Of a stretch of 64,000 bases of DNA, positions 2,457-53,280 are shown in pieces. The translations under genes were made by a program, and so were the position numbers. Below the pieces are notes generated by a model, which saw nothing but the letters and a program-made list of their open reading frames with translations, made no database searches and was not told where the DNA came from. Where the stretch lies: assembly GCF_018977255.1 (NCBI RefSeq), contig NW_024704746.1, positions 21,266,001 through 21,330,000 of the forward strand, in the 5' to 3' direction. This DNA is from Callorhinchus milii. Lineage: Eukaryota. Positions within the stretch are counted from its first letter, which is position 1; each line of letters begins with the position of its first letter.

Positions 2457-3863
2457 CTATACAGTCTGCACGTCTCTCAAAATGTCCACAACTCCTTCTT
2501 GTGTGAGAAACAAAGTATCTCCGACATTCTGGCAGCAGACTTCAAAGACAGGTGGATCTTCCAAAATTCTCTTCCCAGCAATGATGACGTAAGGGTAACC
2601 GAGCCTCTTGGCGTCTTTCAACCTCTTGCCGACTGTCAGGTGACTTCGGTCATCCAAAATGACCTCTCCTCGAAGTTGAGGGGCAGCATCAACCAGCGTG
2701 TCGTACAGACTCTCTGAGAGTCCCTCCGTCACGTCCTCCTTGCTGCCTCTCTTAGGAGGAACGATACAGACCTGATAAGGTGCCAAGAGACTGGGCCAGC
2801 GGATGTCATCCTCAGTCGACAAAATCTCCACAGACGCTGCCAAGATGCGTGTGACCCCAAGGCCGAAGCAGCCCATTTCTGCCGTGACGGGCTTGTTCTC
2901 AGCGTTGTGATAGGAGGCTTTGAAAACGTGCGAGTACTTTGTCCCCAGGTAAAATGTGTGTCCGACTTCAATACCTTTGGTCTCTGTCAGCTTTCCTTTA
3001 CACTGTGGGCAGTCTGTTCCACCGCTTTCCATCTTCTCCACATTGGCAGCGAAACGGCAGGCCAAACACACTAAAATTCTGTCCTCCCCAATGTTTGCTG
3101 GTATCTGAAATTCATGCGACATCTTCCCACCAATGCTGCCAGTGTCTGCTTCCACCTTTACAAATCGCAATCCCAACCGATCAAATATACGGCTGTAGGA
3201 TTCACAGACAATATTGTAGGTCTCCTTTGCAGCTTCCTCCGAGACATCGAACGTATACATGTCCTTCATGTAGAACTCACGCCCACGGAGCAAACCAAAC
3301 CTTGGCTTCGGCTCATCACGGAACTTCCTTGTTATCTGGTAGAGCATGACTGGCAGCTGTTTGTATGACAGGCTACCGTATGAGGCTATGAGGTGTGTCA
3401 CAGCTTCTTCATGGGTAGGGCTCAAACAGTAATCCATGCCATGCCTGTCCTTTAGTCTGAACAGCTCTTTCCCCATGACCTGCCAACGCTCGCTGATCTT
3501 CCACAGTTCTGCAGTACTCAGGCTGGGCATGTTCACCTTCTGGCTCCCGATTGATTCCATTTCTTCATCGATCACCCGGATCAGTTTTTCCAAGGCTCGA
3601 ACCGTGTACGGTAAGTAATAAAAGCAGCCGGGATTGGCTGGGTGGATGAGGCCTGCCTGAATCATCAGCTGCTGGCTCTTGCAGGTGAGCTCGTTCGATC
3701 GGCCAACTCCAACCACTCTGTCCTCACGGAGGTTCATGGGCTGAAACAGGCGAGACAGCAGCAGGTGCTTGGACTTGCCGCGGTGATAATGGAACCTATT
3801 TACATTCCTGTAGCCACTAAACAGGCAATTTAATAACTGTCGTGAGTGACAATCGAAAAACAT
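2457..3863 (-). CDS. PARS2: Mitochondrial prolyl-tRNA synthetase, single coding exon, 468 aa
   Basis: Class II aaRS motifs (LSPTHEE, KFRDEPKPRFGLLRGREFYMKDMY, IEVGHTFYLG, MGCFGLGVTR), anticodon-binding C-terminus (WPSLLAPYQV...DDR...GYP), basic N-terminal presequence. Acceptor ttccag at 3894-3899 just upstream of the ATG; uninterrupted CDS as in human PARS2. Confidence 0.97.
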   Translation of the reverse strand: MFFDCHSRQLLNCLFSGYRNVNRFHYHRGKSKHLLLSRLFQPMNLREDRVVGVGRSNELTCKSQQLMIQAGLIHPANPGCFYYLPYTVRALEKLIRVIDEEMESIGSQKVNMPSLSTAELWKISERWQVMGKELFRLKDRHGMDYCLSPTHEEAVTHLIASYGSLSYKQLPVMLYQITRKFRDEPKPRFGLLRGREFYMKDMYTFDVSEEAAKETYNIVCESYSRIFDRLGLRFVKVEADTGSIGGKMSHEFQIPANIGEDRILVCLACRFAANVEKMESGGTDCPQCKGKLTETKGIEVGHTFYLGTKYSHVFKASYHNAENKPVTAEMGCFGLGVTRILAASVEILSTEDDIRWPSLLAPYQVCIVPPKRGSKEDVTEGLSESLYDTLVDAAPQLRGEVILDDRSHLTVGKRLKDAKRLGYPYVIIAGKRILEDPPVFEVCCQNVGDTLFLTQEGVVDILRDVQTV

Positions 3864-4487: not shown

Positions 4488-4546
4488 GCCTGGGCCTGGG
4501 CCTGGGCCTGGGCCTGGGCCTGGGCCTGGGCCTGGGCCTGGGCCTG
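4488..4546. repeat. (GGCCTG)n hexanucleotide repeat, about 9-10 units
   Basis: Perfect visible array cctgggcctggg... Confidence 0.95.
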
Positions 4547-4549
4547 ACT

Positions 4550-5474
4550 GACCGCTCCCCTCCCCCTCCTGCCCCAAAGTCAGGATCCGCAGGGAATGAA
4601 TGAACCGAACGCCCCCCACACCCTCCCCCACAGCACTAATGCGCGTTGTGCATCAGGGTCAGAGCTCGAGGGGGGACCAGGTAGTTCCTGGTGCAGTTTT
4701 GTGCCCCCAACGCCCCGTCTCTTCTCTCTCCTCTGCCTCTCCCCTGTGCCCAGGGCCAGGCCCCCCCCACCCCTGTGCCCCCCCCACCCCCTGTGCCCAG
4801 GCCCCCCCTGTGCCCCCCCCACCCCCTGTGCCCCCCCACCCCGTGCCCAGGGCCAGGCCCCCCCCCCTGTGCCCCCCCACCCCCTGTGCCCCCCACCCCC
4901 TGTGCCCCCACACCCCCTGTGCCCAGGGCCAGGCCCCCCCCACCCCCTGTGCCCCCCCACCCCCTGTGCCCCCCACCCCCTGTGCCCCCCACCCCCTGTG
5001 CCACCCCCACCCCCTGTGCCCCCCACCCCCTGTGCCACCCCCCACCCCCTGTGCCCCCCCACCCCCTGTGCCACCCCCACCCCCTGTGCCCCCCCACCCC
5101 CTGTGCCCCCCCCACCCCCTGTGCCCCCCCACCCCCTGTGCCCCCCACCCCCTGTGCCACCCCCACCCCCTGTGCCCCCCCACCCCCTGTGCCCCCCCAC
5201 CCCCTGTGCCCCCCCACCCCCTGTGCCCCCCCACCCCCTGTGCCCCCCACCCCCTGTGCCACCCCCCACCCCCTGTGCCCAGGGCCAGGCCCACCCCCCC
5301 TGTGCCCCCCTCACCCCCTGTGCCCCTCTCACTCACTCTCTCTCTGCCCTCCCGCCTCTGTGTGTGTGGAGCGGACGGACCGCCCCTCAGGACAGAAAGA
5401 ACCAAATCGCTAAACTCGATACCACCCAAAGCCCCAGTGACAGTCTGTCCACTGAGAACCTCTGCAGTCTTCAG
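4550..5474. promoter_or_regulatory. Putative bidirectional promoter with non-coding first exons of PARS2 (minus, donor near 4553) and the phosphatase gene (plus, donor CAG|GTAAGG at 5474/5475)
   Basis: GC/CpG-rich; divergent splice donors either side of the array; both downstream coding exons start with acceptors and need a 5' exon. Confidence 0.55.
4741..5325. repeat. C-rich 16-18 bp minisatellite (cccctgtgcccccccac)n
   Basis: Directly visible; source of the Pro/Gly-rich ORFs. Confidence 0.95.
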
Positions 5475-5482
5475 GTAAGGAC

Positions 5483-5929: not shown

Positions 5930-6250
5930 AATAATAATAATAATCCTCGCATTTGATATAACGCTTTTCACGTCGGGAGGACGTCCCAAAGCGCTTCACA
6001 GAACACACTGTAAAGTGAATTGACTGTATATTTGTGGGCGAACACGGCAGCCAATTGCACACAGCAATGTCCCACAAACAGTCGTAGATTGAAAATGACC
6101 AATTTATTATTGTTTTTGGTTTTGAAGGGATTATTATTAGGCTCTGTGTGGAGTAAGGAAACTTGCCCAAGGTTTGGCCCTCTGCCTGGAATTGAACTCA
6201 GGTCTCTCACTTGCAAAGCGAGTGCTCTAACCACTGAGCTACAGGACTCC
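5930..6250 (-). mobile_element. Full-length tRNA-derived Deu-domain SINE
   Basis: tRNA head with Pol III A box (TAGCTCAGTGG) and B box (GTTCAATTCC), Deu-like core (gggacattgctgtgtgcaattggctgcc), hairpin tail, (ATT)n. Confidence 0.92.
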
Positions 6251-6805
6251 ATTTGACAGAGGTAGAAGTTAGACACAGCGTATAAGCGGCTCCAAACTTC
6301 GGGGAGGTGGAGGGAACATCCACTTGGTTACTGGCAACTGATGGGTTTGTTTGGCAGAAGGTTTGGACAACGGTTGGACTCCGCACCTCCCACCCCCGTG
6401 AGAGCCTGTCAACTGGTTCAGCGTAAGATTTACATGTGTTTACCACCGGCGGAAAAAAACAAACGGCCTCTTGTGACTTTGCTGAGACCAATGGAAAAGC
6501 CTCCAATAATTTGCTGGGCTTAAGCTTCCTTTACAATAGTAGAACGTGGAATAGAGTCAAGAGACCCGGAATCGGATCTGTCACTGATTCTTTTTTTGAA
6601 AAGAAGACAAAGACAAAGAAACAGCAACTTTCAGACTAAGCCGCCACCCTGTCCTTTAAACCCCTCGACAGCCTTCGGAAGGGTTAATGTGATTGTTCCA
6701 TTTGGTTTCCCCCAAGGTCTGGACACTTGACACTTGAGCGTCGTTAACAACCAGAGCAAAACTCATCTCTGGAGAGAGAGAGAGAGAAATATATATATCA
6801 CAGAA

Positions 6806-9554
6806 ATGACTCGAGAACCCGAGGAAGATAGGATCATGGCAATTCAACCTCAAAATATCCCAAACCTCAGGCAACTGTGTTCGGGCTTTGCCAACATCTA
6901 CCGCTCAGCCAGCCCGGACCATGCCAGCGAGGAGGAGGTCAGAGTTTTGAAGGAGCTCTTGGGGATCCGATTGATCATCGACCTCCGCTCATCCGAGGAA
7001 CTCCAAGATTCGTCTCACGGGGGTCGGAAGCCGATCGATATTTCCTACGAAAGACTGAAGGTCACAGAGGAGGAAATGGAAGACACGAAGCGCAAGGGCA
7101 CCACAGGGAAACTGCTCTCAGGGGAGGCACAAGGCGTCCGCTGTGTCCTGAGCTTTGCCACCAAGAAATACAAGGCTCGACTCCTCACAACCATGTCCGC
7201 CTGCCAGAAAGTGCTGCTGATGTTCATGGCTCTGATCGATCGGGTTTTCCACACCTGGCTGTCTCAGAGATACCTGACCACCCGTGTCCTTAATCCCAGG
7301 GGGGTGAAGCAACAGTACACAGATCTGGTCGACACTTCCCAGACTGTCATCTTTACAAGTAAGTCGTTCCCGAAACTTGCAGGATCATTTTTATTTCCTA
7401 AAGACGTTGTTACACATGTGGGGTTTTATTTTTATTTTTTTTAAGAAAAGTGTGGGTTAAATATCCTCCTCTTTTCCTAGCTAAATAAATCCCTTTACTA
7501 CTTTGCCCGTTTCGCCAACAAAATATAGTCAACTCACTTTACAGTATATTCTGTAAAGCGCTTTGAGACGTCTTGAAGACGTGATGAAGCTATATCAAAT
7601 GCAAGGATTATTATCATTACATTAGTTAGACTAACCTCCTTCCTCACTACAACAACAACAAGATTCCATTTATAGAGATCCAGAGCCTTGGGGCTGAGAG
7701 GCTGAAGGCCACCGATGGTAGGGCGGTTGGGACGGGGGATGTGGAGCAGACCGGAGCCAGAGGAACGGAGGGTACGGGCAGGTAGGTAGGGGGATAATAG
7801 GTCGGAGAGAGCGAGGCCGTGAATGGCCTTGTAGGTGAGGATGAGGATCTTGAATTCGATCCTCTGGGGGATGGGGAGCCAGTGGAGGCGAGCGAGGGTG
7901 GGAGTGGTGTGGTCCCGAAGCCTGGTGCGGGACAGTACACGAGCTGCAGAGTTCTGAATGACAAAAATTCACTAGACCAATCCCTTCCCTTGTGCGGCAT
8001 GTTGTTGATTATTAAATCCTATTAAAGTCTGAAATCAACAGCCAACGACATACACACCGCTTCCTTTAAAATAATTCCACAGAAATGAATAAGAATCAAT
8101 AAGAAAAGCACTATACATTAGTGAATGGTTAACTGATCAAAGTCACTAAGCAGTTAAAAAATGATCTTGATATTGTTCACAGTCTTGAAGTTGTTGTCTG
8201 AGCCCAGAAATGTCCCTGCTCTGATACACTGCACGGCTGGGAAGGACAGGACTGGGGTCACTGCTGCTCTCATACAACTAGCCGTAGGTTGGCCAAAGAA
8301 AAACATCATAGAGGACTACACGGCCAGCACGGTAAGTAAACCGGATGTCATAAGGTACAAGATGTACTTTTGATTTTACGTCCAGTTAATAGCTCACCTC
8401 ATTGACTAGGTGTGAAAACCCCTCTAGAAAGGGCGGTTCTTGAGCTGCCTCTGGAACATTCAGGACTGCATACCCCTTTACCCCAGGTGGAGAGAAATTC
8501 CTGCAATGTATTTCAATGATACTCATCATTTCGCAGTCTTACCTGGAAAGAATGCTGGTATTACAGCTATCACCATGGATGATCAAACGCGCATTTTTTT
8601 GTTCTGCCATGTGTTGGAGTAGATTCAAATTTGCTTTTAACTAGCTGAGTGTTCATGTTGAAAATTGTTTTATATTGTTATTCACCAATGATAGAGGGGG
8701 AGGGGTTGAGAGCGGAGAGGAGAATTGTGAAATATGAATGTGACTCAGATCCAATGTTCTTTAATATTTTTTATGTAATGGTCTGTGGTATAAAGGCATC
8801 TTGTTATCTATTACTTTATACGATTGGTCATTATCATTGTTCTAGCTCTGTTATATCAGTGCTGTGTTGTTGGGCTTGTCACCAATACACCATGCTCAAA
8901 ATACAGTAACAGCACAAAACTCAACCACTTGGAGATCATTAAAGTGTTATTTTCCCCATCCCTAACTCAGGGATGATGATTGCATGACTTTGGTAGCTAA
9001 AAGTTGGGGTTGTCTCATTTGGCCCAACTCTGTACTTTTCTCTTCAGCAAGGTATAAAGCCGATATATGAAAAGCTTCACACACTTTACTGTAAAAAAAT
9101 GGGATTCACCGAAGATCTCCTACTAAGCTCCAAAGAATATATAAAAGCAGTACTGGAACACGTAGACAATACGTAAGTGATTAAAGTGGGCACCTACTTT
9201 GTACCGAGAACACCAAATCTTTAAGAAATGCACAAACAGAGCAGATAAACAATTAAATTAAGCAATTAAAATATATTAAAAGGAATTGTATTCCATAGAT
9301 GTGGTCTACCTAAAATTTTCTGAATGTCCATTGCATTGAATTTAAAAGCATTGAATTTAAAAAACATTTTAAATGTTAAATTTTAATATTGTGTTATAGT
9401 AGCATTGTCAGCAAAAATAGTACTGTTTTTATACAGATTAGTTTTGTTTTAACTTGTCAGATATGGATCCGTGAATGACTACCTAACAAGTTTTGGATTC
9501 GGTCCAGACGACCAGGAGAAACTGAAGAGAAATATATTGAGAAGTAAAATATAG
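6806..9554 (+). CDS. Microbial-type protein-tyrosine/lipid phosphatase (Y_phosphatase3 / MptpB / IphP-like), 306 aa; coding exons 6806-7358, 8183-8331, 9048-9172, 9461-9554
   Basis: Exons join in phases 1, 0, 2 at GT-AG sites (921 nt, no internal stop). Motifs IPNLRQL, IYRSA, LGIRLIIDLRS..E, P-loop HCTAGKDRTG, IIEDYTAS and C-terminal YGSVNDYLTSFGFGPDDQEKLKRNIL. Confidence 0.9.
7525..7620 (+). mobile_element. SINE 3' fragment
   Basis: aaagcgctttgagacgtcttgaagacgtg...atcaaatgcaaggattattat. Confidence 0.75.
7648..7960 (-). mobile_element. 5'-truncated, internally deleted L2 LINE
   Basis: Near-identical to 33795-34090 on the opposite strand, ending in (TTG)n. Confidence 0.88.
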
Positions 9555-9759
9555 CAGGATGCATACACAGACATTATTGTGTTTGTACATTGAGTTACAG
9601 TTAGCACTAGTAATATCACTAATAGAGCTGAGTCTGAAGCCAGGTTCCCAGTGTTTGATTATAGAAGTTGTAGTCTAATAATAATGAACATTAAACAAAT
9701 TTAGAATGGAGAAAGTACTGACAGTCATGGGATAGGACACATCTGGTTTTCTCTGTTTT

Positions 9760-11322: not shown

Positions 11323-19708
<8,386 letters not shown>

Positions 19709-19769
19709 TTGGTTTTAATGCGGACACTCACACACACACACACACTCACACTCACACACAGCCTTGGGG

Positions 19770-20365: not shown

Positions 20366-22194
20366 CTAACCCCTGTCCCAGCCGATGTGTCCTACCTGTA
20401 ACCTCTGATCCACTAAGGTGGGAGGGGTTGAACAGGTAAAGGGTGTGACTGCTAACAGGGGTCAAAGTCTTATTTCCTATTTGGTGGCATTTACATTTTT
20501 TTATATGGACACACTACTCACTTGCCTGTATATACATATATATATATATGTGTGTGTGTGTATGTATCTATATATATATATACAGACACACACACCATGT
20601 TATTGTAACTCAACTCTCTTTGGAGGTTCCTTTCTAGTACCAGGTCCCATATACTATCTGGGAATCCAGGAGATTTTACCCCCAACACACTCTCTCTCTC
20701 TCTCTCTCTCTCAGTGCTATACGGTACTTGGAGATGTCTAAGCAAAGGTGTCTGACCACCTACAATTTTCCTTTGCTGCCTTCTTCCCCCACGAGAAACT
20801 AGCAACGGTTACACTACTCCACAGGCAATAATAATTATGTGGTAAGGCACTATATAATAACAATAATGGAATAATCCTGCATTCGATACAACGCCTCATC
20901 ACATCTTCGAGACATCTCAAAGCGCTTCACAGAATATTCTGTAAACTGACTGTATATTTTGTGGGCGAAACCCAGCAGCCAATATAATTAATATATCGAA
21001 TGCAACTATTATTACTATTATTATTACTCGTTAAACCCACATGTTGCTGGCAGCTTTCAGATTACTCGAGAATCAATTCCATGCATCCCACCTACACATG
21101 GAAATTCCAGAGAGGGATTGTTAGAATTTAGTTCAGCATTAATTGGAACGATAGCTGTGAATGCGGACTTGCATCTCCTTATGTGGGAAGCTGTGGACGG
21201 TCTCTGACAGCGGTGCCCCCAGCCTTTGGGAACGCTTTCACATTAGAGTGCTTCGGAATGTAGGTGTGACAGCTTGAGATCGCCCGGGAATGCTGTTTCG
21301 CCCTCTTTCGGCACGGTTGCCATTTCAACAATGTGCCAGATCGAGTCCTTCCAGTCTCGCAAGAAGTCTGGACCAGTTCAATCGGATGAACCAACAAGAC
21401 AAACAAGGAGACAAGTCTCTCCGACCAGCCCATCTTTACAGCTGTCATCTCGATTTACGCCAACAGTGTCAAAGCTTCACAGTTCAGATCCAAAGTAACT
21501 GACACCACACACACACAACAAAAACATGCACCTTCTGATACTCCAATGATACCCAAGAGAGAGACACACAGAGAGAGAGAGATGTATATCTCCTCCATCT
21601 GCTGCTTCAATAAAACATAAGAGAGAGTTAGATAGAACACACACACACACACACACTACTCAAATGTATGTGGAGAATAGCAGTTAGGAATAAATTACAC
21701 CCAGAAAACAAGCAGTTACACAACATATTGGGGTGGGGGGGGGGGGTGGGGGGGGGGTGAGATAAATTATTTACACAGGGAATGAGGAATGATGGGGTTT
21801 GCTTAGGAATTGTGAATGTCTGGGGAGTGAAGTAAGAAAAAAAAATCAGCAAAAGAGTTCAGATTACACTGTACTGCGTGTGCGGATTATATTGGATTTC
21901 ACTTGGGGGTCGAGTCTTGTGTTTGGATTCATTTTCCATCACCTGAATCGGATCGTCCGAACCACTGGTACATTTAAGACGTTGGTTATTATTTTATAAA
22001 TTGTCCGATTGCTATTACGTGCTCTGATAACACGCGTGTCCCGTTGCCAAGGAGCCCCCCCCCCCCCCCCCCCCCAGAGTGTGGTGGCTCAGATCACCGT
22101 GAAATGAAGCAGCAGCTCATTCGGACTGGATGGACATTGGGGCGAGGATCCTCCTGCCCTGGGCATCCCACAGGTGTTGACCATCCCATCCCAC

Positions 22195-25100
22195 ATGGCC
22201 AGCAAAAGTTTCACAGGTGCTCCCTTTGGCACTCAGAAATCCAGGTGAGATAAGAGCAGTGCGTGTGGACCAAACTGATGGAGTAGAGTGACTTATTGCT
22301 GATGGAGTAGTGCGACTTATTGCTGATGGAGTAGTGCGACTTATTGCTGATGGAGTAGTGCGACTTATTGCTGATGGAGTAGTGCGACTTATTGCTGATG
22401 GAGTAGTGCGACTTATTGCTGATGGAGTAGAGTGACTTATTGCTGATGGAGTAGAGTGACTTATTGCTGATGGAGTAGAGTGACTTATTGCTGATGGAGT
22501 AGAGTGACTTATTGCTGAAGGAGTAGTGCGACTTATTGCTGATGGAGTAGAGTGACTTATTGCTGATGGAGTAGTGCAACTTATTGCTGATGGAGTAGAG
22601 TGACTTATTGCTGATGGAGTAGTGTCATCACTAACCATCGCTGATTTCTCGTGGGGGAAGAAGTAGTGTAACCATTGCTAATTGGGGGGGAAGAACTCTC
22701 CTCTCAGTCTTCACTTATTTGTTCAATTAATTAAGATCCAGGATAGACTCGGGACAGTTTTTTTAAAAAAAAAACCCACACACACATTTTGTTCTTAAAT
22801 GAGGTGAGCAAACAACATGTGTTACTCGCTTCTGGGTCTTCTGTTGGTCTTTTTTGTTTGTTTTGTTTTGTTTTTTTTGTCGTCTCTGAAGAAATCCAAA
22901 CCCAGAAAGTAGATGGAAAGCCAAAACATTACAGTCGTTCTTCCCCCGAATTAAAATGTTTCTTTATTTCTTGGGAAAGTCACTTTTCTGCGCGTTTTCT
23001 TGAGAGAAGTAATGATTTAATTTAAAAAAAATAAACGGGAAAGTTACCGAATTAGGGTTTCAAAGACTTAATTACCTCTCAGGGATGGCAAAACAATTCG
23101 ATTTCTGACCTGTGGTAAAGGTTATAAAACATTATTGAAAATAACATCCTCCAGTTCTTCCTTTTAATGTAGACGTTTAAGTTTTAACAATTTAAATATC
23201 TTCATAAAGGAACCTCTATTTTACCATTGATATCCGCAATTTGCTGAAACCAATAGTTTCTGTATCGCTTTAGAGCTTTAATCATTGGTAATGTATCTGT
23301 GAAACAAATTACTCCATTTAGCAAGAAACATAAAAGTATCAGAACTCAGAAGCAAAAAGCTACTGAACAAGGTTGGACCATCATAATATAAATTCAAAAT
23401 GAAAATTCTTCTTCTTTCTTCATTCATATCCAGGTTGAATACTCACCCGTCAACAGGAAACCTCTCTTATGATGGGCTCTATTTTGCGACTATATTCTTG
23501 CAAATGACTTAAATCAGATGAATGCCATTTAATACTTTTGTTTGCCTTTGATCCTGCTCGATATACTCTGTTTGTATACCCTCCAGGGTTGGCTTCATTG
23601 GTAATGTATTACACATTGCACCATTTGAGCTTTGACCTAGTCACGAATAAATTGATATATCTACTCAGCCCAAACATCTCTTAGCACATCAGCGGTAATC
23701 AGAGTGAAGTGCAGTGATTATGCTTTTGTAGACAAATGCCAATTTTGCACACAGCAAAGTATCACCAGCAGACATTAACCAAATGACCAATTGACGTTTT
23801 TTGGTGAGAAATAAAAATGGTCTGAATGGGTTTGGGATATTGATTGAAGCAAACAGAAAGGGCTAAATGCCTTTTTTTCTTCCATTCTAGTTACGTTTCA
23901 TGACTTTGAAGTTGATTACAAGAGTATTTTTACTTCTGGTGTTCTTCCAGGTTTGATGTGAACATACTCTACCCAAATAGAAGGAAGCCAGGCACCTACA
24001 CAGAAGTGGTTTATGATAAAAAAGCTACCGGGGAATTGGTAAGTTAGACAACCGTTCCAGAAGAAGGGGCTGTCAAACAGTCCAAGACTTTAATCAGTAA
24101 ATAAAACCAGAGGCTCATCTCTAACTAATGGTGACTACATCTCAGGCCTGTTGGTGCGGAGATCCACATCAGGTTTGCATAATTTACCACAAGATTCTTG
24201 CTAAAGCATCAGTCCTAAAAAAAAGTCACCCTCCTACAACACAGTTCTAAGGAACTCAATGTTTTATATCCTTTTACAGATCCATTGCTAAGGACTGGTT
24301 CCCACACAAGTCCTGTCAATGAGACAGTTGGTCCATTATTAACAATGCCCTGGAGTCCTGTAATAACCTGGTTCAGGAACTACCAGTACTACCATGAAGG
24401 TTGACGTGATTCTAATGTACATCATATTGGAGCTAGCCACCACAGCTCCAAGGTAACGCCACTTACCGATCCCCTCCCCGATTCCAGGTCCTGCTTATTG
24501 CCAACCCCTGGTAACAGATCTGAGATTAAGAAATCATCTCATTGGCCAATATCTCATTCTAAATTACACCAACAACAAATATTTGTATTAGATAAGAATT
24601 GTATTCTGTTCCAGGAAAGAAAGTTAGCTCCTGGGTACTACAATGCAGACCAAGGCAGCTTCAGCCTTGAAGCAGTGGCTCGAAGAGCGTCTGGACCTGG
24701 CTGGGCAAGAGAACAGGAGATAGAGAAGTTTGCTCGCACTCCACAAATGTTTTATAAGGAAAAAAAGCAAAGACAGACATTTCTGGTAATTACTGTACAG
24801 ATTGTTTTATCTCCCCTCTATTACATTTAAAAACAAATTACAGTAGGTACTAGGCGATGGGTGAGGTGTACATAGTGTGATCTTCTCTTTGCATTTTGAA
24901 CATGGCAATTAACAACAACAACGACGGCAATTAAGCTTGATCCATGGTTCATTTTCATTGTTTGAAATTAACCAGCCTTCCTGCTTTTGAAGTAATATAC
25001 AACTGATTTTTCAAAAACAGTTACAGCAGTATAAAGACATTGCCTCTATATTTATAGAACATAAACATATAATAATCTTTGCATTTGATGTAGCGCCTTA

Positions 25101-28100
25101 GGTTGCTGAACCATTTTTTGTACCTCAGGAAATGAGCCGGGGCCCTGGAAGATACACCATACCTTATTTTCTGGACTTACTGGAAAAGAAAAATCCTGGA
25201 ATGAGAGGCGTTTGTGACACCAGAGAGGAGCGATTTAAGGAGGTTGATGTAAGGATTTAGTTTTTTGCCTTTTCAAATAATTTCTATTGTTTTTTTTGCA
25301 TTAAATATCAGTGAAACACACATGTAATATACCTGGAAATTAGATTTTTAAAGGAAGAACCAATTCTACAATTGCTGTATTTCTATTAGTTTATGACCCA
25401 CTATGAGTTTAGTCGACATGTCTAGTCCCAGACTGGCTTTAGAAAGCTTCGCAGAATCTGGGGTGTGGACTTTGAAATATTTGGTAATATGTACAGGAGC
25501 ATTAGGTTGACCAGATTTTTTTGTTTTAACAAATATTAAGCAAAAGATGTGAAGTTATTTTAGCTTTGCTGATTTTCAGAATTACACCCCAGGTCCTGGG
25601 ACATATGGAAAGGGAGGAATCCCAAGTGCGCTGTTGGAGGAGAAAGAAAAGGTTTCTCCTGGAAAACTGGGATTGATGGATTCAAAGGGTTTAAAATCCC
25701 GAGCTCCCATGATACATGTAAGTACGTCAACGTTGTTGTATTTCCTAAGGAAACATAAAGTGAGGAGATAGAGCAGTTTCCCCTGAAGGCGGAAAGAGAA
25801 TTATTTTTCCTCACTTGCACCAATATTGAACGATTTAAGTGGATTGAGAAATCTGGAATCAGGATTGGCATTTAATTTAAAAATGTTCTTAGTCATCATG
25901 GGTGTCGCTATGGCATGAAGAAAGCCAATGACAGGTGAGGAAAGCACAGCAAAAAATTATGCATCATCAGCTTTCTATTACATTGTACTGAGGCTACAGG
26001 TCAAGCGAGATGTTATAATGCATCTCAATTTTAATATATTCTTTTCTAGGGTTGTGATTTGGGGCCGGGCACCTATACCATTGAAAACAGCATAGATAAA
26101 TTACTGACTCGGGTCGTCAGTAAACGTGGCCCCTTCGATCTCTTCACAGGTTCAAGGAACAGTCGTATCATCACTGGGCATCGTGCAACGGTACGTAGAT
26201 GTCACAGTAAAGTTGCTGTATATATTTATTGCTACTTTAGGTTGATGGAGATGGTCGGTGGATGCCTGTGAAAGCCTGTGGAACGTACTGGGGTCAGAAC
26301 AGTTTTTCTTTTTTTTTCCTCTCAATCCAATCTAGGAATTGTGAAGTCCGCTCTCCTTGATGGCTAACAGGGAGAAATGAGTTTAAGCATTCTCAATGAA
26401 CTTCCTGATTAGATACCCACCCACAGCCGTCTATAATTTTATATTGCTGTACTTCACATTCAACAGAGACCAAAAGACGACGTTGGGAAATCACTATGTT
26501 AGGATTAGTGCAGCAGATTGTGTTCTTATGAGGTTAGGGTTAAGAAATACCGCAGAGGAAAAAAAGAAAATTTAAGAACACTAATAATTCTTAAATTTTG
26601 ATGCAGCACCTTTATTCGTTCGAGGGAGAAAATGCATTACTTGCCCATGTCCATTTTGCTACAATTATACCAAAAACAGGGTTTGCACCAAAATAGCTAT
26701 TCTACCTTAAACTTTAGTAAACTGGGCCTAAAATTGATAAGCGCTCAGTGTGTAATCTTGTGGTAAATTATGCAAACCTTATGTGGATCCCTGCACCAAC
26801 AAGCCTGAGATGCAGTCCTTAATTACCATGCGTGAGGGATGCTATATAGGGGCAAGTTGTTGGTGTTATTGTTGTAAAGTATCATGTACATTATTATTCA
26901 ACTCCACATTACCAACCTTTACTTTCTCTATGAAGCTGGATGCTTCTTTACACTTCCAATTACCATCAAAGGAATTCCCCCCAAATTTTCTGCAGTGAAA
27001 ATGTCCGCAAAAAAAAATCTTCCATTCTTAACTTTTCAGCCTTAATGATCTTGCGGTTTCCCATGTTCATAAACACAGACATATGGAGATATAGGAGGGT
27101 CATAGAAGTGAATTTCAAGGCTAGATTAGAAGAATTATGCAATTAATTGCTTGAAAATAACCTGGGTAAAGATGTGTTTTGTATTTTAGAGACCCATGAA
27201 CCTGAGTCCTGGAATGTACAAGATCAAGTCATTCACAAGTGACTTTTTATGCCAGGAAAAGAGGAGACATGGGAAGTTTGGGATGCAGGCACAATACCCC
27301 TTTCCCCCCACAGATCGCATATATTACAGCACCTTGAGCCAATGGCAAAGGCCGAAGGTCAGTCATTCAATCATTTCTATTTTTTTTAATTAAAATTATA
27401 TTTTCCTTGGGTTCTACTCTGCGGACGATGTAATGATCTTGTTCTTGTGTCTGAACAGAGCTACCCTGGATACTACTCCACAAAGCTACTTTCTAAACCA
27501 GAAAACCGAAAACCACCACCATTTTTAACCTCCACAACGAGAGGCAGCTACAAATCTGCTAAACTCTACAATTTCAACCCTGTGAGTGACCACTTCATAA
27601 CTTTTTTTAAACATTGAACTGAGTTACACGAAAAGAGATGGTTCATAAGATTATCCTCCCCCACCAAAAAAACTTGGCAATTATGTTCTGCCCAGCACCT
27701 CCTCCATGGGATGGCTGAAATCAGTGAGTTTCCATAGAAGTCTCTATGATCCAATCTCTTATTATTCTGGTATACAACCCTTCTTTACCCATGTACAGAA
27801 AGATACCAGCTGTTCTGCTCTGCTGAAGGGATTGCAGAGAAGTTCCACCAGATAGTTCACTAACGTTGTCTGAAGTCCGGAAAAACTATTTTCAAAGTTA
27901 AGACTCAATTCAACAATTTGCCAGATTCTGTATGCTCCACTGCTGTACTTGTGATCCTCTACAATGCTCTCATTGATTCAATAATAATAATAATAATAAT
28001 CCTTGCATTTGATATAGCGCTTTTCACATCGGGAGGATGTCCCAAAGCGCTTCACAGAACACACTGTAAAGTGAATTTAAAGTCAATGTGCTAATAAGCC

Positions 28101-28796
28101 ACCTGTTTATTTTCTCATTACAGAACAACGTAGGTGTGGGCCGCTATGACACTGCAAAGTATGACAAAACCAGACCAGTAAACTCCTTCAGATCATGTTT
28201 TCTCTCTAAAACCCAGCGTTACTTGTCTAATTTTACAAGGGACAAAATCCTACAGTAAGTGCGCACACATCCCTTGCCACAGTGAGAAAAACTGAGCGAT
28301 CATTTTCAGGTTGAATCGCAGAAGGGGAAAATTGGAATAGCTACATTTTTTGCTTTTTCTTCCTCACATGTTGACAGTGAGGTATATTAACCTTTTTTGT
28401 TGAAGAAAAAGTTTTACATTTCAAAACTACCTGTTATCATCCTGTTTGGATGGTGTTCTTGTTTCTTCAGTGTGACTTGGAAAGTTTTTCCTTTGTGAGC
28501 AGCTGTACATCCTCTTTGGTCTCTTGCCCATTCTGCCTGTGTGATTAGTTTTAGTTAATTTTGTCAATAACATGGATAAAATATCCGATAGTATAGCTGA
28601 GATCGAGTCCCTGCATGAAGGAATTGAAGGATGTACCTCTTGTGCAACAACTGTTGATAATTTAACTTGTTAAGACACCTAACCTATTATTAATTCTACC
28701 TGCTTAACTTCCAACTTTCATTATTATCATAGAGAGCGCCTGAAATCAACAAAGCCTCATCCAGTTCCAAGAGGGAGTTCGATCACCTTGCTTTGA
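22195..28796 (+). CDS. LEXM: Lymphocyte expansion molecule / ciliary microtubule-associated protein 2 (C1orf177), 397 aa; exons 22195-22244, 23951-24038, 24615-24785, 25129-25248, 25580-25717, 26050-26190, 27190-27357, 27459-27581, 28124-28254, 28733-28796
   Basis: MASKSFTGAPFGTQKSRFDV..YPN, repeated (G/A/S)PGxY STPGR/SHIPPO-like motifs, KRGPFDLFTGSR, PTDRIYYSTLSQ, VGVGRY, FLSKTQRYLS..RDKILQERL. Ten exons join in frame (1194 nt); synteny. Confidence 0.9.
22275..22624. repeat. 24-bp tandem repeat (ctgatggagtagWgYgacttattg), about 14.5 copies, LEXM intron 1
   Basis: Head-to-tail copies with two main variants and no spacers. Confidence 0.97.
27980..28077 (-). mobile_element. SINE 3' fragment
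   Basis: (AAT)n followed by ccttgcatttgatatagcgcttttcac...aagcgcttcacag. Confidence 0.8.
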
Positions 28797-31700
28797 AAGG
28801 AAGTTGAAGTCTGTACATCTTTTTGAATAAGTGAATAGATACCATCATTCATCAAGAGTCTGTACGGGTGTTCTCACATGTTTGGGAGCAAAACTAACAT
28901 TCTGCAGCTTATTTTGCCCCAATTTGACACTCTTGCAAATCACCCATTGCTCAATCGGTGCCTCCCACAAGTTAAACCATCCAATTTGGATAAATGTACC
29001 TAAATATCTGCATAAGACTTTTTGGATTCAAATTAACAGACATGGATACGTAGAAGGCACATCTCCGCATTATAAGGGAAGGCAGTATGTGGAAATAGTA
29101 AACAAATGTTAAATAAAATGCAAAAGATAAACCAACTTCAGCAGTTAAACTTTATTTAAAAACACCATAAATAAACCCAGATTAAACAGGTTTTTTTTTA
29201 ATGAATTTACAATACATTGACAAAGGGGGATTATCAGAATTACTAGCACTCTCAAACCTTCAACAGCAGATTATAAGGCCGGAATTCAACAAAAGGCTTA
29301 GAGCTCCCACCTCTCCCAAAACAAGCAGACAAAATACTGGAATCAGTTTATTACCGACTTTTGTGGTTGTTATCAACAGATGGACAGTACACAGAAAATT
29401 CAACACATCATTACTGAGATTGCAAATCCAATTTAGCTAAATGAACCGAACCTCCATAGTATATTTGTTTGCTCAGGAACCATTTACTCAAATTTAAACA
29501 AAAAAAATGCAAGAACAGAAATTATAAACTTGATACAAGAACCAAAATTAAGAAAAGGTTGATTACTTCCTCTGACCTTGTCAGGTTCTGCTGTATCATT
29601 GGTTTGAGAGGCTGTACCTTCATGTAACCCTGCACCAAAACAGCACCCGTTGCCTCCTCTCCCTCCAATAAGCAGGTATTTGGTCTAATACTTCAATTGC
29701 ACAGAATTCACATTTCAAATAAGTATTGTGGAAGTCCAAGGGTACCAGAGACATTTGATAATAATCCTTGCATTTGATTAACGCATTTAATGCCAGGAGA
29801 ATGTCTGAAAGTACTTCACTAGATTATATAAAGTGTAGTGACTATATGTAGGTGAACTCAGCAGCCAATTGGCACACAAGGAATGTCCCACAAACAGCCC
29901 CAAAAATCTACAGGAATATCTAACAAATTGATGGAAAGTTTATTTCTGTTCATCTGAACAGAAACGGTTTCAAATTCAGCATGTTGGATTTTTTATTCCC
30001 ACTCACACATACGTTGAACTCCTTCCAAAACAATTAGAACAGAGGAGTCTTTCATCAAATCGTTACAATAGGTTCAATTAAGACATAGATAAGTTTGAAG
30101 CAAATGATTTTGGCATGCCTTTTAGTACAGTGGCGACAGTGCTACACCAATATAAGAATAGTGATGGTGTAAGGAAGATCAAATTAGTGACACTGGGCTG
30201 CAAAAATGTCTTCTCTCTCTCAGACCTCCTATCTCACTACTAAACCAACACAATTCTCATTGAATCCTACAAAGCAGTGGCATAAAACACAACTAATCGA
30301 ATACTTGATCACATAGGTATCAGACATTGAAAAGGTTCCACTCTTTTTATGGAAAGTGCAGATGAGGAATAAGTCAAATTTTCTGTAAAAAAGTTGGTCT
30401 ATCTTGCTTGAAGTTCAAAGGCTAAGGCTAGAAGCCAACAAATAACTGAGTGAGTTAAACTTGTATGGCAAGCTGAAACTGGGCTCTTTGGGCATCACAA
30501 TTCCACACTCATATCCACACTAACGTACAGCATTTACAGGCAGCTTGATAAATTTCATTTACCTTTTACAAAATGTCGAGTTTTTGTCAACTCAATTTGA
30601 AATTTAGGCTTTAAACAATAATACTAAAGCAACAAACAGAAAACTTTCAAAACTCTCTCAGCAGGCACTGTAATGAGCTTGAACCTTCGCCCAGAAATTT
30701 TGAAACATTTGAATAGACTTCATTTAACTTTAAACAAAAGAGTACTGAGAGGAAGTGCAGTATTAAATTGGCAAATATGCATATTACACACTGTACCAAT
30801 GGAGCCAAGAATCAACACAATCCAATGCATAGTGGTCATCAAATCCAGTAGAAATTGATCTTACTTTTTTTAATCAATTTACACTGAATTGAAGGAATGC
30901 CAAGGGATCGCAATACAGTAAGTGTCCAAAATGAACAGCAGTTACAAAGCTGTATTTTAACAGAGGTTTTGGAGGAAATACACCATAACCAAGGCTTGAT
31001 GAGCTTATGAACATCAGTAGAACTTCAAGACTGAAGCACTACTTTGCACTGCTGTGGATGAGGTCTATTGATTCTCAGGTGGCAGGTGGCTAGGGCTAGA
31101 GAGGGGAAGGGGATCAGCTCCCAATCCACCTTTGCTCCAGTCTGGGCTAATTGGATGTTGTGGCGGAGAGGGGTGCTGCTCTTAGTGGTATGTAACGGGA
31201 GGTGAAGCAAAGCGAGTGTAGCAGTCAATGAGTTGAGTGAACAGGAATTGGATCCAGTGCCAACTCACTCTCACACACACATGCTCTGCAGTCTTCAGCA
31301 AAGCATGGTCAGGATGTACAAGGAGAACCTTGCTCAGCACAAACCCCCAATCCACTGAATGTTTTCACAGCTACCTATTACACACACACACGCACTATAA
31401 TACATAATAAATACACATGTGAATACTGTTATACACATACAGTGAATGCAACAGAAAGGCAATAAGCAGAGATATATTTTTGACCTGAAAGCATACATTA
31501 CCACAGAACAAGTACCTTACTGCGTAAAGAATAAAATCCATTCTAAGTTTTAATTACTTATTTCCCAGCAATACTCTCCACAGTCGTTTCGACTGTAGTG
31601 TTCAATCTCAAGGGCATTTACTTCAAAACATTTGGCACTTGATATTTAAATGCTAACAGAACTTTCCATATCATTCACTTCACACAGTGGATCCAGTAAG

Positions 31701-32563
31701 TTAAAACTTGGACTTGCCATGATATTATTCATTAGATTGTAACCGATTCAAGCCATTTAACCGCATGAAGAAATTCTAATTTTGTAATTGTAGTTTTTGT
31801 CTATATTTCACACAGTGCCTTTCATCATGCCTATGGCTGTTTGCACAATTAACTGACTAGATTTTTACTAAACCCTTCAACACACAAAATTACAGATGCA
31901 CTTACACCCACCATTTTGAATAACATATATCTTTTTAAAATAAACTAACAGCTGTGAGTGACAGAATGTGCTGAGCTGCTACAAGTCTTCTAGTTTCAAA
32001 TGAATGACAAGAAGCACAACTGATTACACATGAAGTGGGGAAAAAAAAGCCATAATTCTAGAACTAAAAAGATGGTCAACTGTGCCCAGGTAGCTCAGTG
32101 GATAACACTGCAGGATTTTTTATGTATTAAGTTATTTAACTCCCCAAGACAGTGTTTGTCATATTCCATTTTAGCTTCAGTGTATCCAGACTAGCAAGAT
32201 TTCCAAATCTGTATCACAATAGTGGGCTAAAATGGAATGTCCCCTCTTTTCCCTCCCGATACAAACAAAGCATGTCAAGGCATCCACATTAAGATCATCA
32301 CTTAAGATACAAAGTACAGGATACAAGATGCCTTTTCATGCCTGCAGAATCAAAATTTAGCATGAGGCACCTCCTTCAAGAGAAGCAGGCTTGGATGAGA
32401 ATCAGAAGAAATAGTTTCTTTGGAGAAATAAAAAGCTTTGAAATGAACTTAAAAGTGCGCTATGAATGGAACGCACAAAAATGTATCCTACGTATTAGGA
32501 AATAAATTAGATTGGAACTAAAGCTTCACCCGGTTCCTTCTCCTGCTAATCTCCCAGTGTCTT

Positions 32564-41061
<8,498 letters not shown>

Positions 41062-50333: not shown

Positions 50334-53280
50334 ATGGCGGAGGATAAATCATTTCGCTACGGACTGATCGTTCTGGGATTCTTCCTGATAATGATTGGGA
50401 TGTTCATCATGAACGTGGACAAACCTGAGGTCTATGCCACCTTCTGTTCTGTTGGGGTTTTGATGGTCATCGTGGGGATAACCTGGAGCATTTGTCAATG
50501 TTACCCTAAGGTAAGGTATGGGGGATAAATGTGATGGAATATTCCTACAGTTACTGGTTTATCTGGTGATGTGATACCATTAGCACAAGGTTGCTTTATG
50601 TTTTTAAGAAGTGATTTTCTCTTCCTTGGTTACATACAAGAATCATCATGTGTCTACTCCAAGACCAGCAAACTTCACCACATTGCCATCATAAATATGG
50701 ATTGATTCTCTGTTTCCTTTGCAGATTACATTTGTCCCAGCTGTGGAGTCTGACATGGAATATCTGTTTTCTCAAAAGCGTCAGATTGCAACCTTCATGT
50801 CAGAGTGTGAGGTCCCCATCAAATCAAGGTAAGGGATTCTGAACATCAAGTTGCGAATAAATGTTACAAATTCTTACACAAATTACTGTGTGATTTCCTA
50901 ATCTTAGCTTTACTAAATCAAAGCTAAAGTGTGTGCCAGTGAGAACACTTGGAGTTTAGATAGGAGTACTGTATCACCATTTCATGGCTTGGTGGTAGAG
51001 GCTGCTTTTGTAGGACGTGGGACAAAATTATTTTTTTTTTAGTTGCAAATACAGGGTAACCAAAAAGTCGTGATATCATCACAGTGTCTAATAAGTCTTA
51101 AAGAATTTTTTTTTAGATAATAGGGTAGCTGAAAATTAAGACATTTTGATCACTCTGTATATGGAGGTATTTAATGTAATGTTTTAATGTTTCATTGTGG
51201 TATACTTTTGTTGAAGTGACGAAAATCCATACATAGTAAATCTCACACACGTCTGATCTGTAAAACTTGTACAATCGCCAAGTCGTACATCTGCCCAAGT
51301 CCTGCATAAGTCATATTAAATATGTGAAGTTTACTGACGATCCAAATAGACACCTGGAGATTGAGTCTTTGTTATAATACATGTTTTGCTTAAGTTTTCT
51401 CTCGCAGTTTAATTCATCAACTTAGGACTTGGATCAACTATGTAAGAGATTTGCATTGATCTCGACCTTGGAATCTTTCATTGAATGAGCTCTTTGACCC
51501 TCATTCTGGTGCAAGAAGAAGTTCATGCCTTGAGAGGATCGTTATATAATAATAATAATCCTTGCTTTCGATATGGTGGCTTATCACGTCTTCTAGACGT
51601 CTCAAAGCACTTCACAGAAATCACTGTAAAGTGAATTGACTGTATATTTTCTCAGCAGAAGGATTTTTGTTATGGAAGAATTTTAGGGCTTTACGTTCCA
51701 GTAGGGTTTGTAGAACTGTTCCAACTTGTGATTACCAGAGGGTGGGTGAAACAAAGACAGCAGATAGTGAAGCTGTATGGTTTACTCAGGAGGTCTAAAC
51801 ATGAGTCTCCAGAGAGTTCATGGCTCACATGCACCTGTCAGGCTTGTGGTACAGTACATTTCTAGTCAGTAAAACTTGCTTTCTCTTCCAGCGCACAGAC
51901 TCCATATATCTCCGTCGAAGCAGGTGGACAGCTTGTAAAAAATCTTCTGACATCCAGGCAGATCCAATATACAGTGACCCATGCTGTGGAGCCCCCTGAA
52001 GTGAGCAGTCCTCCCACTTCCCTTCAGTCAGAGCACAAGGACCGAGATAGCCAGGCTTCTCTGAAGGCAGAGGTTATGGTTCACAGGGACTCTGAGAGTG
52101 ATGGAGAGACGAGCTCTAGCCTTGGCTCCAATAACATAACCCCACCTGGCAGAAGGTGAGGACATTTATATTTAGGTCCTTATTCCCTTTGTTGAGGTCG
52201 CACACTGGGGAAACACCATTCAAACCTGGACTGCGAGACCAGGACATGCAAGAAAATGAAGTCAAACAGTTGCTGAATGCCTTCATCACTCAGATTGTGA
52301 GGTCTTCTTTCTATTTCACTGTTATCAACAGTGTTAGATGTGGCCTGGTCAGCCCAATTCAGTTGGTAGCTTCTCCCCTCTGAATCGGATGCTTGTGGGT
52401 CACATTAGGACTTTGAGATTATAGGTCAGGGTGATTATTTTTTTAATCCAAAAATGGTGAGTCTCTCCCTATATCCTGGCCAACAATTCCCCCCAATTTT
52501 TTTTTAAATGGGCATTCACTTCATGGCTGGTGGAGGAGGGGGCATTGTTGGTGCAAATTGACTGCCGAGTTTTAGAACCAGAGTTTTGGAGTCTGGAAAT
52601 GAGTATTTCCTAATGAGCCAAGATGGGCCGTGAGATCATTGATTCAGAGAGTCTTAACGCACAGTGTTAAGTTTCTACATGTGTCAAAAACCCAGGTGAC
52701 CATAAGATGAGAAATAATATCCTTAAGCGTTCTGAGACATCATCTGGCATGAAGGACACTATATAAATGTAAATTGTTGTTATTAAAAGGGAGGTGTCAC
52801 TGTCTCTATCTAATCCATGTTCCTTCTCATCATCTTCACTTTATGTCCTCTTGTAGTAAATCAGGATGCTGTAGCAAGGCTCCTCTTGCTGTCTTCCACG
52901 AAGACCTTGATCCTACAATCAGTCCGTCCTCCTCAAGCATCTCATCTCTTCCCAGATACGAATCACTGATTCCGTCAGCTTTGAGAAACAAAGATCAGGG
53001 CCCAGTGGGTAGGAACCTCCCTCAATACGAAGACATCACCGTTGTTGAAACAGTACCTTGCGAAACCCACTGTCTCTGCAACCAGTTGGTTGCCCCCATC
53101 TCTAAGAATGAGTTGAAATCCGATCAATCCACTTCCAGTGAACGTCAGAACGTCAGATCAAGAGGCCAGGTCGAAGATGATATGTATTATGGGTTATACG
53201 ATGAAGCACAAGATAATACTCTTAATATATCTGAGGAATCTGAAGTCGAAGAATATTGTTCTCAAGATATTTCTGTGTAG
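50334..53280 (+). CDS. BSND: Barttin (ClC-K beta subunit), 322 aa; exons 50334-50510, 50725-50828, 51892-52155, 52857-53280
   Basis: MAEDKSFRYGLIVLG...WSICQCYPK|ITFVPA matches the barttin N-terminus with a 177-nt first coding exon; later exons join in frame (969 nt); acidic C-terminus with DMYYGL; synteny. Confidence 0.92.

Follow-up and report, generated by a model that had tools for sequence, protein, structure and literature searches.

A phosphatase gene between two conserved neighbors in Callorhinchus milii

The DNA analyzed here, a stretch of 64,000 nt from Callorhinchus milii that we call the window, carries a phosphatase gene with four coding exons between a prolyl-tRNA synthetase gene and a TPR gene (Table 1). 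We take these neighbors to be PARS2 and TTC22. Beyond the TPR gene lie exons with Pfam matches to FAD_binding_4 (DHCR24-like), TMEM61, Barttin, and Inhibitor_I9 (PCSK9-like); the first and last of these presumably belong to DHCR24 and PCSK9 by name, and we assume that the gene order around the phosphatase agrees with the human one.

Table 1. Features of the phosphatase locus and its neighbors (positions in the 64,000-nt window)
Feature	Position	Strand	Remarks	Evidence
Prolyl-tRNA synthetase CDS	2457..3863	-	single exon; head-to-head with phosphatase gene	Pfam match of ORF
5' leader	6226..6805	+	transcribed, joined to exon 1; start approximate	contigs
Coding exon 1	6806..7358	+	aa 1-184; phase-1 donor; NLRQL, YRSA, IIDLR..E, helical insert	PF13350 E 1.2e-9; contigs
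Segment with ~40-aa insert	7139..7333	+	aa 112-176; common to animals, holozoans, early fungi
Coding exon 2 (active-site exon)	8183..8331	+	aa 185-234	PF13350 E 1e-16; contigs
P-loop HCTAGKDRTG	8227..8256	+	aa 200-209; H200, C201, K205, D206, R207
Coding exon 3	9048..9172	+	aa 235-276; phase-2 donor	contigs
Coding exon 4 and stop codon	9461..9554	+	YGSV..YL motif	contigs
3' UTR	9555..9700	+		ends of spliced contigs 9681-9755
Last exon of TPR gene	11323..11844	-	tail-to-tail with phosphatase gene	Pfam match
Further TPR exon	18545-19714	-		Pfam match

The joined exons span 921 nt, encoding 306 aa and a TAG stop, and the three introns are GT-AG with phases 1, 0, and 2. The exon ends and frame bear out the original prediction, which had joined four GT-AG exons in phase into a 306-aa ORF; the motifs it quoted (NLRQL, YRSA, IIDLRS..E, HCTAGKDRTG, DYTAS, and YGSV..YL) are all found in the protein. 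NCBI lists an identical protein of 306 aa for Callorhinchus milii as the uncharacterized LOC103182731. The proposed junctions (7358/8183, 8331/9048, and 9172/9461) are spliced, with a single contig crossing all three in three of the four sequencing runs examined (two studies; 14 runs listed) and the fourth run having the last junction only; none of the listed runs is recorded as RNA and those examined are only presumed to be, but their phosphatase contigs are free of introns. The leader is covered by an unspliced contig from one run (6226-7358) and by a contig from a second (6239-6761), and a candidate poly(A) signal of the gene, ATTAAA, starts at 9690. One PF13350 locus was found in the C. 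milii genome (two matches among eight candidates, both at the phosphatase gene). Contamination is not the explanation, since the gene lies on a chromosome-scale contig between the synthetase and TPR genes: this is a real, spliced, single-copy gene of a cartilaginous fish.

Family assignment and predicted fold

The protein matches PF13350 at 157 bits against a cut-off of 22.2 (E 9.8e-46), over profile positions 28-239 of 240, and PF03162 at 44 bits (E 2e-11), above the cut-off of that family. It contains only PTP-fold Pfam domains, with no PH, C2, GRAM, or FYVE module, and matches no NCBIfam family. Neither the WPD nor the KNRY motif of classical PTPs is in the sequence, PF00102 has no match at E<=0.01 in the whole protein, and comparison with human PTPs and PTEN gives E values of at least 0.16. 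An AlphaFold2 model built from a 100-row alignment (pLDDT 94.6) is closest to MptpB (2oz5; Z 22.3, rmsd 3.1 over 228 residues) and to a C. difficile PTP (8dhj; Z 20.1), followed by Siw14 and PFA-DSP1, which are inositol-pyrophosphate phosphatases (Z 13-14, best 13.9); the best human structure is laforin at Z 11.2. Profile and model thus agree with the earlier call of an MptpB-like PF13350 protein, and the better match to a vertebrate DUSP or PTP that had been named as one result that would overturn it did not appear.

The atypical lipid phosphatases (ALP) are defined in PMC3091653 by the P-loop HCxxGKDR[TA]G, and the sequence features by which that paper delimits the family are all found in the fish protein. 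With MptpB, Lmo1800, Lmo1935, and Leishmania LM1 it shares this P-loop, including its Lys and Asp, a single domain without WPD loop or lipid-binding modules, and the predicted fold with the extra helices of the MptpB type. It differs in being encoded by a vertebrate gene with introns, in its ~40-aa helical insert within aa 112-176, and in belonging to an animal, holozoan, and early-fungal subfamily. Siw14 and the plant PFA-DSP (PF03162, OCA family) have the CX5R fold as well, but PF13350 is by far the stronger match; their core of ~165 aa lacks the ALP C-terminal helices, and the P-loop of the plant enzyme is more basic (PMC3091653). Myotubularin and PTEN also use CX5R chemistry, and the general acid of myotubularin is likewise a P-loop Asp (PMC3091653); however, neither has a significant match to the fish protein (PTEN E about 1; MTMR2 Foldseek E 0.24), and they carry the PH-GRAM, C2, or FYVE domains that it lacks.

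Relatives in invertebrates, holozoans, and early fungi

Our main similarity search was an exhaustive phmmer run over 1.84 billion representatives, in which a shark cluster (300 bits) is followed by full-length matches at 156-124 bits. There are 13 non-shark matches at E<=1e-30, and the 11 looked up comprise nine named invertebrate animals, one Pigoraptor, and one entry without organism. Looking up 30 of the best 150 matches gave 13 invertebrate, 3 unicellular holozoan (Pigoraptor, Creolimax, and one labeled "Clim", which we take to be Corallochytrium), and 4 early-diverging fungal clusters, and 10 without organism. The invertebrate clusters (Owenia, Octopus, two Branchiostoma, Pecten, Pinctada, Gigantopelta, Haliotis, Tubulanus, Ptychodera, Strongylocentrotus, Macrostomum, and Amphimedon) include annelid, mollusc, amphioxus, acorn worm, sea urchin, flatworm, and sponge, and relatives are present in seven invertebrate phyla. 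A profile of the chondrichthyan proteins run over a 382-protein set likewise places named animals on top (201-175 bits), with the best labeled bacterium at 107.

Word-indexed searches returned eight chondrichthyan proteins, the other seven being 43-52% identical to that of C. milii, and then microbes. They missed the invertebrate orthologs, so that taken alone they falsely suggest a shark-then-microbe gap with the look of horizontal transfer. The residue before the catalytic Cys is Asn or Cys, not His, in 11 of the 13 named invertebrate proteins, which explains both why these searches missed them and why a scan for HCxxGKDR found no animal family. The ESM Atlas matches are fungal, algal, and bacterial clusters only, from a set of clusters with at least 50 members that is uninformative on animals. 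None of 267 pattern matches in viral contigs was confirmed; among prokaryotes 6 of 373 were, in the C-terminal half only and at 31-48% identity.

No bony vertebrate or cyclostome is among the named matches (predicted proteomes; 30 of the best 150 looked up), and the original statement that no mammalian member is known holds for these matches too. On this distribution bony vertebrates likely lost the gene, so that its absence seems to extend beyond mammals to bony vertebrates as a whole and probably to some sharks. Among the entries listed in supplement 5 of PMC8455134, the sole PF13350 orthogroup is OG0014375, which comprises four proteins from 3 of the 37 chordate taxa and does not occur in the file of that study that assigns human genes; the four proteins fit two from amphioxus, one from white shark, and one from elephant shark.

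Within cartilaginous fishes, no named match comes from carpet sharks, ground sharks, or stingrays (one 49-member cluster being taken as a whole), which suggests further losses inside sharks. By our assignment, the named matches belong to Holocephali, Hexanchiformes, Pristiophoriformes, Heterodontiformes, Lamniformes, and skates. In Branchiostoma belcheri, one copy is predicted inside a 1074-aa protein; the tags Bbelb_017780 and Bbelb_017800 suggest tandem paralogs.

Probable vertical descent of the gene

Trees were inferred with a quick PMSF analysis of 50 rows and with LG+F+G4 on 36 and 42 rows, the two smaller sets omitting most rows that lack an organism name. Chondrichthyans, other animals, holozoans, and early fungi are split from bacteria and short-type Dikarya with support of 99/99 in one tree and 98 (SH-aLRT) in a second. 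The insert follows the same division: the segment aa 112-176 has 55-74 residues in 25/25 long-type rows, whereas its length is 18-28 in each of the 11 rows from bacteria and short-type Dikarya. An HMM of the insert built without shark sequences matches the C. milii protein at E 5.6e-8, and none of the nine bacterial and Dikarya rows listed scores better than E 12. Intron positions appear to be common as well, in a comparison drawn from truncated protein records rather than genomic DNA. Seven records of the sea urchin cluster end at ICL|GK, one of the abalone cluster reads ICA|GN, and an amphioxus isoform diverges at IYS|V; all these breaks are at the codon of intron 1 and are what read-through of a phase-1 intron would give. 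For intron 3, the divergence of two amphioxus records sets in at its codon.

Because animals rank first, the trees group them with chondrichthyans, and the insert and apparently the intron positions are common to both, we hold with considerable confidence that the gene descended vertically, with or without hidden paralogy. The original prediction had left open whether the gene was ancestral and lost in mammals or horizontally acquired and intronized; these data support the former and disfavor the latter, and with it the most sensational reading falls away. Its label "microbial-type" suits the letters of the P-loop only, the nearest relatives being invertebrate animals.

If the chondrichthyan stem had received the gene from a microbe and introns were gained later, or if exon 2 alone had been replaced by a bacterial one, this would account for the P-loop HCTAGKDR, which is the bacterial consensus, for the long stem branch, and for a tree position without firm support. 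Exon 2 has a mean identity of 58% (up to 62%) to seven short-type proteins, themselves chosen by similarity to the exon 2 stretch, against 45% to animals. In AU tests on 36 rows, trees uniting chondrichthyans with all bacteria (p 0.18), Actinobacteria (p 0.15), or short Dikarya (p 0.13) were kept, as was their placement outside the other long-type rows (p 0.76). We nevertheless consider a transfer very unlikely: the best matches are animals, the insert is missing from the sampled bacteria, the introns are apparently common, and few prokaryotic and no viral pattern matches were confirmed. The AU test rules against the best-scoring bacterial-like clade as sister group (p 0.005), and the 36-row tests likewise reject the Sorangium/Bacillota group, Chloroflexota, early fungi, and unicellular holozoans as partners. 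We set aside a bacterial chimera at exon 2, which favors the bacterial tree by only 6 lnL, 4.6 of these in the P-loop; the site test of this exon (10 vs 12 sites) gives no exon-wide signal or block of supporting sites. A chytrid protein with the long insert also has HCTAG, so the P-loop can converge. Vertical descent could also have involved an early-animal duplicate of His type that was kept in cartilaginous fishes and flatworms, other bilaterians being mostly of Asn type. Chondrichthyans and the long-branched Macrostomum both keep the His and stand side by side outside a 97/83 bilaterian clade, and amphioxus has at least two divergent copies; yet the chordate (p 0.23), bilaterian (p 0.58), and all-animal (p 0.68) trees are kept by the AU test, Asn to His takes one base change, and the long-branch pair may be an artifact, which makes such hidden paralogy an unlikely addition to simple descent.

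Predicted chemistry, substrate, and membrane docking

The C, G, K, D, and R of the P-loop are invariant in 100/100 aligned proteins, and the C. milii copy is intact. By analogy with the members described in PMC3091653, Cys201 would attack a phosphate held by Arg207 through a phospho-cysteine mechanism, Asp206 in the P-loop would act as general acid, a role assigned to it since there is no WPD loop, and Lys205 would help to bind the inositol head. The same analogy predicts PI3P, PI4P, PI5P, perhaps PI(3,5)P2, and pTyr as substrates; PIP3 would be excluded because P-loop position 2 is the non-basic Thr202. Lmo1800, Lmo1935, and LM1, whose P-loops equal that of the fish protein, act on PI monophosphates and pTyr (PMC3091653), and lipid phosphatase activity of the fish protein is predicted from such characterized members. 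In the model, the exon 3 helix 238-251 is, by its position, the putative counterpart of the lid.

The N-terminus of the protein is hydrophilic by eye, and the insert forms three helices in the model (120-128, 132-148, and 152-177). Mean hydropathy over residues 126-144 is +1.7, a moment of 0.42-0.46 marks residues 130-153 as amphipathic, and basic residues make up the flanks. Since the protein has no PH, C2, or FYVE domain, we propose from this anatomy that the helix aa 130-148 and its basic flanks may dock the enzyme on an internal membrane; a peripheral dock is preferred to a transmembrane span because the model folds the insert into the globular domain. The insert could instead line a lipid pocket. 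The hydrophobic helix is kept in invertebrates; in the four elasmobranchs measured it is shortened and its hydrophobicity is gone.

With the origin unchanged, the enzyme might in vivo act not on a membrane lipid but on pTyr in a phosphoprotein or on an inositol phosphate in solution. Characterized members are equally or more active on pTyr peptides, Lmo1935 preferring peptides 7-fold in spite of its equal P-loop (PMC3091653); an ALP-related enzyme is reported to have phytase activity (PMC6409689); the next structural neighbors of the model act on inositol pyrophosphates; and maximum hydropathy in sharks and rays is 0.03-0.80 against 1.77. The P-loop, however, has none of the additional basic residues that go with polyphosphate substrates (PMC3091653), and animals from sponge to amphioxus have conserved the hydrophobic insert, so that we regard a non-lipid substrate as rather improbable, if a serious alternative. 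That the gene is vestigial, with selection relaxed and its function mostly gone, is highly improbable. Its patchy presence and the altered lamniform copies described below would fit, but in the C. milii copy no invariant residue is missing, the frame is open, and splicing is precise, and CxxGKDR is intact in 8/8 chondrichthyan proteins at the ortholog identities given above. We lean toward the joint reading of a spliced, single-copy phosphatase of MptpB fold, likely vertical in origin and likely lost in bony vertebrates, whose predicted role is the dephosphorylation of mono-phosphoinositides on a membrane surface.

Apparent erosion within sharks

Both lamniform copies (Cetorhinus and Carcharodon) read IISLC for IIDLR, with D59 changed to S and R61 to C at positions where D and R are present in 96 and 95 of 100 aligned rows. 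Their P-loops are HCMCGKDR and HCVGGKDR, and their lid region is shorter. Such changes may reflect decay; alternatively, they may have placed a new cysteine close to the active site, for which a PTEN-like redox pair would be a parallel. The best reading of the sequences is that the gene has been kept patchily in cartilaginous fishes and is apparently eroding in lamniform sharks; sharks would offer a graded series of gene erosion.

An overlooked animal subfamily

The protein itself is already known, being in databases with its Pfam label. PMC3091653 reports no animal homologs of the ALP family, apart from one C. elegans motif match in its Table 1, and proposes the family as a source of pathogen-selective drug targets; PMC8027504 still describes the family as limited to microbes. 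The human part of the no-animal-homolog claim of PMC3091653 holds, but the family appears native to animals, which leaves the animal phosphatase inventory without a branch. We found no description of an animal PF13350 or ALP member in the literature (subscription journals were outside the scope), and the gene apparently adds a vertebrate member, so far without a description, to a known family of enzymes, together with an overlooked animal subfamily.

It is common for a gene family to persist in cartilaginous fishes after its loss from bony vertebrates (208 families in PMC8455134); 17 C. milii Pfam domains are missing in bony vertebrates (PMC3964593), and the methyltransferase JX052984 is a precedent for such relics (PMC3466250). 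The phosphatase has a similar pattern and is not named in the searched text of these three papers, although the PF13350 domain may already be among the 17 of PMC3964593 (Table IX.2).

We advance more tentatively, at somewhat less than even chances, the view that the subfamily is an ancestral animal class of phosphoinositide phosphatase, the eukaryotic counterpart of MptpB, in which a membrane-docking helical hairpin replaces PH, C2, or FYVE domains. It would extend from sponge to amphioxus, overlooked because the motif is NCxxGKDR in the majority of bilaterian copies, and among vertebrates would survive in cartilaginous fishes only, vanishing there lineage by lineage: the hairpin in sharks and rays, the DxR in lamniforms, and perhaps the whole gene in other orders. 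A host-side function can be looked for in tractable models, namely sea urchin, amphioxus, Macrostomum, and skate.

Other features of the window

Between the head-to-head synthetase and phosphatase genes, tandem repeats with a GC content of 75-78% fill 4490-5480, and donor-like sites lie near 4552 on the minus strand and near 5474/5475 on the plus strand; from its sequence this block might be a promoter for both genes with first exons that are non-coding. A LINE-like 3' fragment has copies at 7534-8010, in intron 1 of the phosphatase gene, at 16863-17270, and at 33120-34357, the longest of which has a broken reverse-transcriptase-like frame by eye and no Pfam match. From the TPR gene to the DHCR24-like gene (21000-33000), no clear long coding ORF was seen, long ORFs only being considered; human LEXM/CIMAP2 presumably sits in the matching interval. 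Downstream of the Barttin exons, a plus-strand ORF of 175 aa at 52753-53280 has two LPxY motifs and no Pfam match, and is probably the barttin tail.
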